Below, piece after piece: positions 4,080-54,955 of a stretch of 64,000 nucleotides of DNA. A program made the translations under genes and the position numbers. The notes beneath the pieces are model-generated. The model saw only the letters and a list, made by a program, of their open reading frames with translations. It made no database searches and was not told the DNA's origin. Numbering within the stretch: position 1 is the stretch's first letter; every line of letters starts with the position of its first letter. Origin of the DNA: Escherichia coli (GTDB lineage Bacteria > Pseudomonadota > Gammaproteobacteria > Enterobacterales > Enterobacteriaceae); assembly GCF_013122565.1 (NCBI RefSeq), contig NZ_CP053258.1; one strand, 5' to 3'.

Positions 4080-4155
4080 TGGCTCCTCTGACTGGACTCG
4101 AACCAGTGACATACGGATTAACAGTCCGCCGTTCTACCGACTGAACTACAGAGGA
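4080..4155 (-). tRNA. asnT: tRNA-Asn (GUU)
   Basis: Reverse complement of 4080..4155 is a 76-nt tRNA-Asn sequence ending in CCA, matching the recalled E. coli tRNA-Asn. Confidence 0.93.
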
Positions 4156-5146: not shown

Positions 5147-5236
5147 GGAGAGATGCCGGAGCGGCTGAACGGACCGGTCTCGAAAACCGGAGTAGGGGCA
5201 ACTCTACCGGGGGTTCAAATCCCCCTCTCTCCGCCA
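5147..5236 (+). tRNA. serU: tRNA-Ser (CGA)
   Basis: 90-nt sequence GGAGAGATGCCGGAGCGGCTGAACGGACCGGTCTCGAAAACCGG...TCTCCGCCA read directly; long variable arm, CCA end. Confidence 0.93.
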
Positions 5237-13459: not shown

Positions 13460-14647
13460 TTAGAACTGGTAGACTAAGCCCACAGCAACGATATCATCGG
13501 TAGCGATGCCGTTTTCTTTGTAGAAGTCGTCGTCGTTGTCCAGCAGGTTGATTTTGTAATCAACATAGGTGGACATGTTTTTGTTGAAGTAGTAGGTCAT
13601 ACCAATATCAACATATTTAACCAGATCTTTGTTGGTGTAGTGATGATTACCCTGGCTGTCGAAGTTATCACTATTTACACCGCCTAAATCCTTACCTTTA
13701 GATTGCAGGTAAGCGATGGACGGGCGCAGGCCGAAGTCGAACTGATACTGAGCAACAACTTCAAAGTTTTGGGTTTTGTTAGCAATGGCATCAGCATCAC
13801 CGTAACCAGTCATGTTACGGGTTTCAGCATACATAGCTGCTAAGTAAACGTTATTAGCGTCGTATTTAGCACCAACGGTCCATGCTTCTGCTGTTTCACC
13901 GCCAGCAGTTGCATCGAAGCGATCTCCATAACGGGTGTTATGAGTATCTTTGTGAACCTGGTTATCGGTACGGTCAGAGTTAGAATAAGCAGCCCCCAGA
14001 CTTAAACCGAAGTCGAAGTCATAGGAAGTGGACATACCGAAGCCGTCACCGTTCTCTTTAGCTAACTTACGTCCATTACCGTTACCAGATCCTTCCTGAC
14101 CGAACGCTCCACTACCTTCATTATTACCCTGATATTGCAGAGCAAAGTTCAGGCCATCAACCTGACCGAAGAAGCCATTGTTACGGTAGGTTGCAACACC
14201 ATTGGTACGACCGTTCATGAAGTTGTCAGCACCAGCATAGGTATCGCCACCAAATTCTGGCAGCATATCGGTCCATGCTTCTACGTCATATACGACACCG
14301 TAGTTACGACCATAGTCGAAAGTACCATTCTGGCCAAAGCCTAAACCTGCAAATGCCAGACGCGTTGCGGTATTACCTTTGTCACTTTCAGGACCGTTTG
14401 CGCCAATGTTAAATTCCCACTGACCGTAACCAGTGAATTGGTCAGCGATCTGAGTTTCACCTTTGAAACCGATACGGGCATATGACATGTCGCCATCGCT
14501 GCCAGAATCATCAGAGAAGTAGTGCAGGCCCGCTACTTTTCCGTACAAATCCAGTTTATTACCATCTTTATTATAGACTTCAGCCGCATTTGCTGCGCCA
14601 GCAACTAATAACGCCGGGACCAGCATTGCCAGAACTTTTCTTTTCAT
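13460..14647 (-). CDS. yedS: Outer membrane porin YedS (OmpC/OmpF family), apparently intact
   Basis: Uninterrupted ORF 13460..14677; start set at ATG 14647 ([21 protein letters not shown] signal peptide); C-terminal ...VGLVYQF porin signature. Confidence 0.85.
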
Positions 14648-14958
14648 TATGTATTCCCTTGTGATTATAATCTTCATGAATATATCAATAAGTGCCGTTA
14701 TCCAAAAAAAAGCACATTTGGATACTATTCTATGAAGTTCATTTTATTTTAAGAATTACATGTAACAAATGTATTTAAAAGATTTCAAAATGTTTCCAAT
14801 CTATTTAATATAATTCAGAATTATGAATTCTAAATATAAGCATTCATGAAAATTATAGCTGTATATCAATAATTTATGAGTTAACCGGAAAAATAGGTAT
14901 TGTCAATGATTGTTGCGCCAAACGGCAGGTGTGATCACGCGCACATTAATGAAGACAT

Positions 14959-15050
14959 AAAAAAAAGCCGGCATCATGCCGGCCCAAAAAATATAAACAA
15001 GACGATAAAAGGCTAATAACAGGGTTATCATGACATAGAAATCAAAAAAG
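14959..15050 (-). ncRNA. rseX: Candidate small RNA, possibly RseX
   Basis: Minus-strand terminator: GCCGGC-ATCAT-GCCGGC hairpin (14967..14983) followed by an 8-10 nt U-run. RseX is recalled to lie between yedR and yedS. The 5' end is estimated from the recalled ~91 nt length, not seen. Confidence 0.3.
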
Positions 15051-15213
15051 GTATAATTGTATTCAGTGCTAATATATTGTTTAGGTGAATTAATAAAACC
15101 ATTACCAAAGATATAAATAAATCTTTATTGCTGATTTTCCGGTAATTATTGCAGTTGCGCAAAATTTATCTATTTGTTCAAAAAATGATTGAGTCTTGAC
15201 TGGCTCATCCAAT

Positions 15214-15579
15214 GTGGAAAAATGTGACTTTTATCACATAATAGTACTAAGTCTGAATTTTCCGGGTTATCTCAAAATGGAATACGGTTCGACAAAGATG
15301 GAAGAGAGACTCTCTCGCAGCCCTGGCGGCAAATTGGCTTTGTGGGCTTTCTATACATGGTGTGGCTATTTCGTCTGGGCAATGGCGCGTTACATCTGGG
15401 TGATGAGCCGGATCCCCGATGCCCCGGTGTCGGGATTTGAAAGCGATTTAGGATCTACCGCGGGAAAGTGGTTAGGGGCACTGGTCGGATTTTTATTTAT
15501 GGCTCTGGTCGGGGCATTGTTAGGCAGCATTGCCTGGTACACCCGACCTCGTCCCGCACGTAGCAGACGCTATGAATAA
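15214..15579 (+). CDS. yedR: Inner membrane protein YedR
   Basis: ORF 15196..15579; a GTG at 15214 gives the 121 aa I recall. Alternative ATG starts at 15277 (MEYGSTK) and 15298 (MEERL) lie downstream of the CRP palindrome and may be the true start. Confidence 0.65.
   Translation: MEKCDFYHIIVLSLNFPGYLKMEYGSTKMEERLSRSPGGKLALWAFYTWCGYFVWAMARYIWVMSRIPDAPVSGFESDLGSTAGKWLGALVGFLFMALVGALLGSIAWYTRPRPARSRRYE
15223..15238. promoter_or_regulatory. CRP-type palindrome TGTGA-N6-TCACA
   Basis: TGTGACTTTTATCACA read directly; perfect match to both CRP half-sites. Confidence 0.45.
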
Positions 15580-23451: not shown

Positions 23452-23538
23452 AACACATCAGATTTCCTGGTGTAACGAATTTTTTAAGTGCTTCTTGCTT
23501 AAGCAAGTTTCATCCCGACCTCCTCAGGGTCGGGATTT
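23452..23538 (+). ncRNA. dsrA: DsrA small regulatory RNA
   Basis: 87-nt AACACATCAGATTTCCTGGTGTAACGAATTTTTTAAGTGCTTCTTGCTTAAGCAAGTTTCATCCCGACC(T)CCTCAGGGTCGGGATTT, with terminal hairpin and U-run. Confidence 0.9.
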
Positions 23539-44836: not shown

Positions 44837-44860
44837 CCCCCGCCACCGGCGGGGTTTTTT
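44837..44860 (+). terminator. Rho-independent terminator after fliC
   Basis: CCCCGCC-ACC-GGCGGGG hairpin followed by TTTTTT. Confidence 0.6.
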
Positions 44861-54653: not shown

Positions 54654-54729
<76 letters not shown>

Positions 54730-54782
54730 GTTTAAAAGACATCGGCGTCAGCGGATGTCTGGCTGAAAGGCCTGAAGAATTT

Positions 54783-54856
54783 GGCGCGTTAACAAAGCGG
54801 TTATGTAGCGGATTGCAAATCCGTCTAGTCCGGTTCGACTCCGGAACGCGCCTCCA
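54783..54856 (+). tRNA. cysT: tRNA-Cys (GCA)
   Basis: 74-nt GGCGCGTTAACAAAGCGGTTATGTAGCGGATTGCAAATCCGTCTAGTCCGGTTCGACTCCGGAACGCGCCTCCA. Confidence 0.93.
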
Positions 54857-54868
54857 CTTTCTTCCCGA

Positions 54869-54955
54869 GCCCGGATGGTGGAATCGGTAGACACAAGGGA
54901 TTTAAAATCCCTCGGCGTTCGCGCTGTGCGGGTTCAAGTCCCGCTCCGGGTACCA
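54869..54955 (+). tRNA. leuZ: tRNA-Leu (UAA)
   Basis: 87-nt GCCCGGATGGTGGAATCGGTAGACACAAGGGATTTAAAATCCCTCGGCGTTCGCGCTGTGCGGGTTCAAGTCCCGCTCCGGGTACCA. Confidence 0.93.

Follow-up and report, generated by a model that had tools for sequence, protein, structure and literature searches.

The minus strand between drpB (yedR) and yedS in this Escherichia coli chromosome carries rseX, to judge from covariance-model and pairwise matches, and we put the probability that the region is the rseX gene, specifying a free-standing 91-nt RNA, at roughly 95%. The element lies in the window, by which we mean the whole 64,000-nt stretch of DNA that was analyzed. It is an already described gene and an ordinary orthologue, with nothing new in kind. 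It stands out only in having an uncommon variant of the 5′ end and an intact porin gene next to it. Because RseX has been known since 2002–2006, the assignment carries little weight as a discovery. The natural alleles differ only in their 5′ third and could serve as ready-made mutants for assigning parts of the RNA to targets.

In K-12, a sigma-70 promoter and a terminator led to the prediction of RseX in 2002, and rseX then emerged as a multicopy suppressor of rseP lethality. 5′ RACE data from that strain pointed to a primary transcript, and Hfq was found to be required for repression of ompA and ompC. Native RseX was never seen until hns was deleted, at which point bands of about 91 and about 75 nt appeared; induction was stronger in an hns stpA double mutant (PMC8313858). 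H-NS/StpA keep the gene silent, it lies outside the sigma-E and OmpR regulons, and it is not known to be induced by any natural condition (PMC8313858). The same work added fimB and ihfB as direct targets, with the 5′ end of the RNA proposed as a toehold, and the pairing site on ompA is without experimental mapping in the literature (PMC8313858). Compared with the full RNA, the last 40 nt (RseX+52) are the stronger repressor of fepA, an effect that requires the terminator loop, Hfq and RNase E and apparently proceeds without direct pairing (PMC11979758).

None of the automatic RefSeq/PGAP records inspected (L001, L003–L012 and L021–L031) has a feature over rseX, which is annotated in the curated K-12 record alone. 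Because PGAP annotations lack the feature, rseX has, in nearly every genome, the appearance of an orphan terminator in “intergenic” DNA. The yedS–yedR intergenic region has been used as a marker for tracking host sources, and RseX is never mentioned in that report (PMC11267920).

Identification of rseX

An earlier reading, made from the letters of the sequence without database searches (hereafter the sequence-only reading), had described a minus-strand hairpin and U-run at 14959–15050 as an orphan terminator belonging to a short independent transcript, possibly RseX. String searches place both elements where they had been described, to within one base, and the transcript proves to be RseX. When the whole window was scanned with Rfam 15, RF01401 (rseX) matched at 14960..15049 on the minus strand over model positions 1–94 of 94, with a score of 94.1 bits against a gathering score of 50 (E = 1.6e-11). 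In a permissive Rfam scan of the intergenic region, RF01401 was the only family above threshold. Sub-threshold matches to AniS, Esr41, RyhB and Bp1_781 (17–25 bits versus thresholds of 50–102) were driven by the terminator and were rejected.

The curated K-12 MG1655 record gives rseX (b4603) as a 91-nt ncRNA at 2033649–2033739. Aligned with it, window positions 15049..14959 (minus strand) are identical at 81 of 91 positions without a gap. The K-12 gene is flanked by drpB (b1963) and the yedS pseudogene (b4496), with hchA and hprS further out, and the window shows this gene order in reverse orientation. In both, rseX is co-oriented with yedS and divergent from drpB, and 23 other E. coli loci have the same drpB–rseX–yedS arrangement. 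Between the RNA 3′ end (14959) and the yedS ATG (14647, minus strand) there are 311 nt, as in K-12 and in agreement with the figure of about 310 bp proposed from sequence alone. On the other side, the drpB ATG (15277) is 227 nt beyond the RseX 5′ end. The view that the hairpin ends no protein gene also held, the upstream neighbor drpB being on the opposite strand and diverging. K-12 RseX thus shares locus, strand relation, length, spacing to yedS and −10 hexamer with the RNA described here. Coordinates are collected in Table 1.

Table 1. Positions of RseX, its parts and its neighbors, in window numbering.
Feature	RNA position (nt)	Window position	Strand	Basis
RseX sRNA, 91 nt		14959..15049 (5′ end 15049, 3′ end 14959)	−	Rfam RF01401 and K-12 b4603 alignment
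−35-like hexamer TAAACA		15078..15083	−	Consensus scan, alignment to K-12 (TAATCA there)
−10 hexamer TACAAT		15056..15061	−	Ends 6 nt upstream of K-12-equivalent RNA 5′ end
Stem-loop 1	14–38	15012..15036	−	Rfam consensus structure, pair counts
Predicted ompA-pairing site, GCCUUUUAUCGUCUU	37–51	14999..15013	−	Local duplex scan; identical to K-12
U/A-rich stretch UAUAUUUUUU, putative Hfq module	55–64	14986..14995	−	Read from sequence; directly upstream of terminator hairpin
Intrinsic terminator hairpin	65–85	14965..14985; core GCCGGCA-UGA-UGCCGGC 14983..14967	−	Terminator scan, fold, string search
U8 tail, transcript 3′ end and presumed Hfq-binding tail		14959..14966	−	String search
yedS, intact 395-aa porin gene, neighbor outside the RNA		13460..14647	−	ORF; Pfam Porin_1
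drpB (yedR), neighbor outside the RNA		15277..15579	+	ORF, K-12 record; start codon per PMC7648144

Terminator and promoter

On the plus strand, a string search finds A8 at 14959–14966 followed by GCCGGCATCATGCCGGC at 14967–14983. The corresponding minus-strand hairpin has seven perfect pairs and a 3-nt loop, followed by U8. It is the element seen by the sequence-only reading, whose version of six pairs and a 5-nt loop omitted the closing A-U pair. The stem can be lengthened to nine pairs, including two G-U (14985..14965), with six G-C pairs, a loop of 3 nt and then T8. The terminator core is unchanged in 27 of 27 aligned Escherichia sequences.

Because hits to a loose terminator pattern are common here (5 versus 3.4 ± 1.7 in shuffles), a strict census was performed for sites with a perfect 7-bp stem, at least five GC pairs, a loop of 3–8 nt and at least seven T in the next nine bases. 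Only three sites were obtained from both strands of the 64-kb window, and none from any of 20 shuffles: the rseX terminator, the DsrA terminator (23514) and a site at 44838 (plus strand). The 92-nt RNA folds with a free energy of −19.0 kcal/mol (z = −2.56), and 3 of 200 shuffled sequences were equally stable. The length of the T-run is polymorphic among E. coli genomes, being 6, 7 or 8 bases, which could affect termination efficiency and Hfq binding.

A sigma-70 promoter, which the sequence-only reading had suggested should be sought upstream, is found at the expected place (TAAACA-16-TACAAT, 15083..15056), although only 9 of 12 consensus positions match. Matches of this quality occur at the level of chance in the region (9 such sites versus 5.9 ± 2.8 in shuffles). 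Since the match is weak by itself, the weight given to this promoter comes from its position and its conservation in K-12. K-12 and most of the aligned E. coli alleles share the −10 hexamer, two sampled alleles differing there, and the −35 hexamer is one base removed from that of K-12. In K-12, the rseX sigma-70 promoter has 5′ RACE support, and an H-NS motif is reported at −42 to −32 (PMC8313858). The intergenic region here is 29% GC, compared to 49% for the whole window, which is consistent with silencing by H-NS.

The best sigma-70 match in the region is on the other strand. It is ATGACA-16-TATAAT (11/12) at 15030–15057 of the window, facing drpB, overlapping RseX nt 1–20 and conserved in K-12. 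Note that this site is not the documented drpB promoter, which is located between 15214 and 15277 (PMC7648144). Its −10 hexamer shares two bases with the rseX −10, and its −35 hexamer is the complement of RseX nt 15–20, which are invariant in all alleles. Part of the conservation of nt 15–20 might therefore belong to the plus-strand site.

Predicted structure of the RNA

RseX begins with a U-rich 5′ tail (nt 1–13), followed by stem-loop 1. The core stem of the latter, AUGAU/GUUAU (nt 19–23 with 30–34), is almost invariant, and its 6-nt loop (nt 24–29) is AACCCU here versus GCUUCC in K-12. An outer G14-C38 pair is disrupted by A14 in the window. Nucleotides 39–64 form a single-stranded, A/U-rich linker ending in the stretch UAUAUUUUUU, within which the U-run at nt 60–64 is invariant across Escherichia alleles and nt 55–59 are conserved without being invariant. 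Hfq-binding regions of enterobacterial sRNAs usually have this layout, a U-rich stretch next to a terminator and its long U tail. By analogy with Hfq-dependent sRNAs generally, this stretch and the U8 tail would be expected to bind Hfq.

When the Rfam structure was placed on 14 Escherichia sequences, 97.3% of cells were paired and no pair was changed on both sides. With so little variation in the stems, the alignment gives no evidence for or against the structure.

Distribution and allelic variation

Of 5,426 complete E. coli genomes, 4,879 contain the rseX region. Over 111 nt, 18 of these 4,879 match the window with at least 99% identity and 204 with 95–99% (222 with at least 95%), the remainder being lower. 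Relative to K-12, the window RNA has ten differences, at nt 6, 7, 8, 9, 14, 24, 25, 26, 27 and 29, so that its tail is UGAU rather than AUUA and position 14 is A rather than G. Nucleotides 30–91, which contain the predicted ompA-pairing stretch, the U-rich module, the terminator hairpin and its loop, do not differ between the two. By these comparisons, the window allele is uncommon in E. coli, yet different only where the RNA is least constrained.

For the distribution outside E. coli, a sequence pattern was run against 100,044 species, each represented by a single genome, and recovered rseX in Escherichia only: E. albertii, E. whittamii, two unnamed Escherichia species and representatives labelled E. 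coli. Note that the pattern demanded exact matches in the 3′ part, and a diverged homologue (e.g. upstream of Salmonella ompS1) could be missed. In five other Escherichia species-level representative genomes beside E. coli, rseX scores 87–95 bits with RF01401. Six rseX sequences from GTDB species-representative genomes were used to count differences over nt 1–31, and four of them are closer to the window allele. E. whittamii, Escherichia sp. E1V33, Escherichia sp. MOD1-EC7003 and E. coli E69 differ from the window at 3–4 positions and from K-12 at 6–8. The pattern is not followed by E. albertii (7 differences from the window and 5 from K-12), and strain SCPM-O-B-8794 resembles neither allele closely (7 and 9 differences, respectively). 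On this count, the window allele appears to be the older of the two, and the form common in E. coli appears derived.

To describe variation without bias, 12 genomes were chosen via the neighboring yedJ gene, independently of rseX. In this sample, values for π are 0.044 for rseX nt 1–31, 0.044 for the rseX promoter, 0.042 for the rseX–yedS spacer and 0.024 for the spacer from the rseX promoter to the drpB start codon. The value for rseX nt 32–91 is 0.012, making these nucleotides the most conserved part of the intergenic region. Judged by these values, the 3′ two-thirds of rseX is constrained, and the 5′ third is not visibly so. An apparently hypervariable 5′ third (π of 0.16 versus 0.05–0.08) was obtained from 13 alleles picked by identity over rseX itself and was rejected as an ascertainment artefact.

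Differences between the window and K-12 are concentrated in nt 1–31 (10/31, versus 47/598 in the remaining non-coding region; Fisher p = 1.7e-4). Such a cluster is not unique, given that 45 sliding 31-nt intergenic windows have at least ten differences, with a maximum of 15 near 15104. No co-variation was seen between the rseX allele and the YedS porin allele; the former follows the haplotype on the drpB side. The haplotype from 14400 to 15560 is a mosaic, in which the first 198 nt of yedS are 1% from K-12. The 5′ part of rseX and the drpB side belong to a rarer haplotype that is 5.7% from K-12 and 0.2–2.8% from strains 162.2, FELIX_MS724 and WWCOL-236. This mosaic implies a recombination junction within or near rseX.

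About 547 complete E. coli genomes are without rseX, an absence of about 8–10%. Because about 10% of E. coli genomes lack it, the gene is dispensable. In strain E300010 (NZ_CM128601.1, positions 2499–2508 of locus L032), hchA abuts a 5′-truncated yedJ, and yedS, rseX and drpB have been deleted together. A partial yedJ match only was found in 453 complete E. coli genomes. Deletions like that of E300010 probably explain most of the absences.

Target pairing and proposed mode of action

Pairing was predicted using 20-nt windows of RseX nt 1–64 against positions −45 to +21 of the K-12 ompA and ompC mRNAs and of yedS from the window. The shuffle fractions obtained for ompA and ompC (0.01–0.04) are uncorrected, and the results are thermodynamic predictions only. 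For ompA, nt 37–51 are predicted to pair with −23 to −7, over the Shine-Dalgarno sequence, with a ΔG of −17.5 kcal/mol for both alleles, a value reached by 2–3% of shuffled sRNAs. For ompC, the predicted hybrid of the K-12 allele joins nt 30–44 to −15 to +1 (ΔG of −16.6; 4% of shuffles). That of the window allele is longer, joining nt 23–42 to −28 to −5 (ΔG of −20.1; 1% of shuffles), and in it the loop AACCCU would pair with AGGGUU at the Shine-Dalgarno sequence. Pairing with ompC is thus predicted to be somewhat stronger with the window allele. Predicted pairing with the yedS start region is at chance level, 83–88% of shuffles being as good. When full-length duplexes with the ompA, ompC and yedS leaders were predicted, the end-to-end hybrids were no better than those of shuffled sequences (z of −0.1 to −2.0).

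These data and the published work on K-12 suggest how the gene would operate. A sigma-70-type promoter (−35 at 15083–15078, −10 at 15061–15056) would start the transcript at about 15049, and the intrinsic terminator (hairpin 14985–14965, U8 to 14959) would end it, giving a free-standing RNA of 91 nt. As published for K-12, rseX would be silenced by H-NS with StpA as back-up, leaving the RNA undetectable in wild-type cultures. When made, RseX would repress ompA and ompC in trans with Hfq, the route by which multicopy rseX rescues an rseP mutant in K-12. Going by the K-12 data, it would also repress fimB and ihfB, and fepA via the 3′ end and terminator loop in a manner dependent on Hfq and RNase E. 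Since the window RNA matches that of K-12 throughout nt 30–91, it should bind Hfq and repress ompA and fepA just as the K-12 RNA does. Pairing could differ for targets that use nt 6–29, where the ten substitutions lie in the 5′ tail and in the stem-loop 1 loop.

The allele comparison can be extended to a more speculative proposal, which we consider unlikely. Here the window would carry the older, genus-wide 5′ third (tail UUUUUUGAUUUCU, loop AACCCU) and mainstream E. coli a replaced form (AUUA tail, GCUUCC or GCCUCC loop), the locus, with its intact and H-NS-silenced YedS porin, acting as a porin-replacement cassette that turns YedS on and OmpC/OmpA off. Target ranges might differ between the two forms because a pyrimidine-rich loop can pair with Shine-Dalgarno sequences. 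If this were true, a window-type allele would show stronger ompC pairing and altered toehold pairing with fimB and ihfB. Against the cassette, the rseX allele does not travel with yedS, the 5′ third is no more variable than its flanks, and equally dense patches of differences occur elsewhere.

RseX can be compared to MicA, RybB, MicC and MicF, which are likewise described in the literature as short, trans-acting, Hfq-dependent RNAs with an intrinsic terminator that pair at or near the ribosome-binding site of OMP mRNAs (ompA, ompC). MicF also adjoins a porin gene, in its case ompC. These RNAs have no sequence relationship to RseX, RF01401 alone reaching threshold at this locus. The 3′ ends of SdsR and ArrS repress fepA in a terminator-loop-dependent manner, as does RseX+52 in K-12 (PMC11979758). 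The genes and sequences of SdsR and ArrS are distinct from RseX, the RseX+52 part of which is identical in the window.

Alternative explanations

The element might instead be mainly a cis-acting leader or attenuator of yedS, with read-through under some conditions and the 91-nt RNA as a by-product. It is co-oriented with yedS, lies 311 nt upstream with no intervening gene, and precedes a yedS that is intact in the window. We nevertheless consider this quite unlikely, given that the terminator is strong (7–9 bp, six GC pairs, U8), that RseX acts in trans from plasmids without an intact yedS (PMC7648144; PMC8313858), and that the 3′ part of the K-12 gene is unchanged even though K-12 yedS is a pseudogene. 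Nor is any pairing of RseX with the yedS start region predicted. A limited amount of read-through into yedS may nevertheless occur. Between the terminator and yedS there are AT-rich repeats and promoter-like sites (14834..14807 and 14768..14741), which indicate that yedS probably has a promoter of its own.

If the locus were instead a silent relic, a former sRNA (or one that arrived with the porin gene) would now be drifting without function in this lineage. Such a history would fit an RNA never detected in wild-type K-12, a gene deleted with its neighbors in about 8–10% of E. coli genomes and a 5′ third whose π of 0.044 equals that of the surrounding intergenic DNA (0.042–0.044). It would not fit nt 32–91, which are 3–4 times less variable than the flanks (π of 0.012) and almost unchanged in five other Escherichia species-level representatives. 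Low variability both within E. coli and across species points to purifying selection, and the promoter −10 and terminator are intact in the window, making a relic very unlikely. A small hydrophobic protein encoded by a 42-codon ORF (15031..14903, minus strand) is almost certainly not what the region specifies. The ORF starts inside RseX and runs through the terminator, is open in both the window and K-12, and has a product of membrane-like appearance. Its translation would need a transcript that ignores the strong terminator, and a Shine-Dalgarno sequence is absent from the upstream 20 nt in all alleles. Comparison of 13 alleles led to its rejection as not conserved: a T7/T8 change in the terminator tail shifts the frame in 6 of 13, giving an unrelated 31-aa end, one allele has ATC for ATG, one is limited to 15 codons and two have a stop at codon 37.

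Neighboring genes and other features of the window

The yedS product matches the full Pfam Porin_1 profile with E = 1.5e-141. In K-12, the gene downstream of rseX is a pseudogene, disrupted by a frameshift and by a CAG-to-TAG stop. Of the E. coli loci retrieved, some have an intact yedS and others a frameshifted one, and PGAP labels the gene either “porin” or “porin OmpC”. The 5′ part of the coding region is very diverse between strains (π of 0.18–0.22). Upstream of yedS, at about 14750–14800 on the minus strand, are repeats such as GAAACATTTTGAAATC and ACATTTGTTACATGT that by eye resemble the OmpR-binding boxes of porin promoters. They are located just upstream of the promoter-like site at 14768..14741. 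When the region upstream of yedS was compared with that upstream of ompC, the result was a forced alignment of AT-rich DNA.

A second sRNA gene, that for DsrA, is present at full length at 23452–23538 (plus strand; RF00014, 100.2 bits), 8.4 kb from rseX. DsrA represses hns. The proximity of the two genes is probably coincidental, despite the connection through hns/H-NS. Apart from the terminators of RseX and DsrA, the only strong intrinsic terminator in the window is the site at 44838 (plus strand), which has a CCCCGCC stem, a 3-nt loop and T6. Five tRNA genes (RF00005) were found, including a cluster of three, at 4083–4155 (minus strand), 5147–5233 (plus strand) and 54654–54952 (plus strand), and appear ordinary; by the K-12 map, they are presumably asnT, serU and glyW-cysT-leuZ. 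None of the 5,426 complete E. coli genomes comes nearer to the window than about 98–99% over stretches of about 20 kb, which places the source lineage outside that collection. The window is nevertheless syntenic over its full length with E. coli chromosomes (hprS-hchA-yedS...dcm-vsr...fli genes...uvrC-ara).
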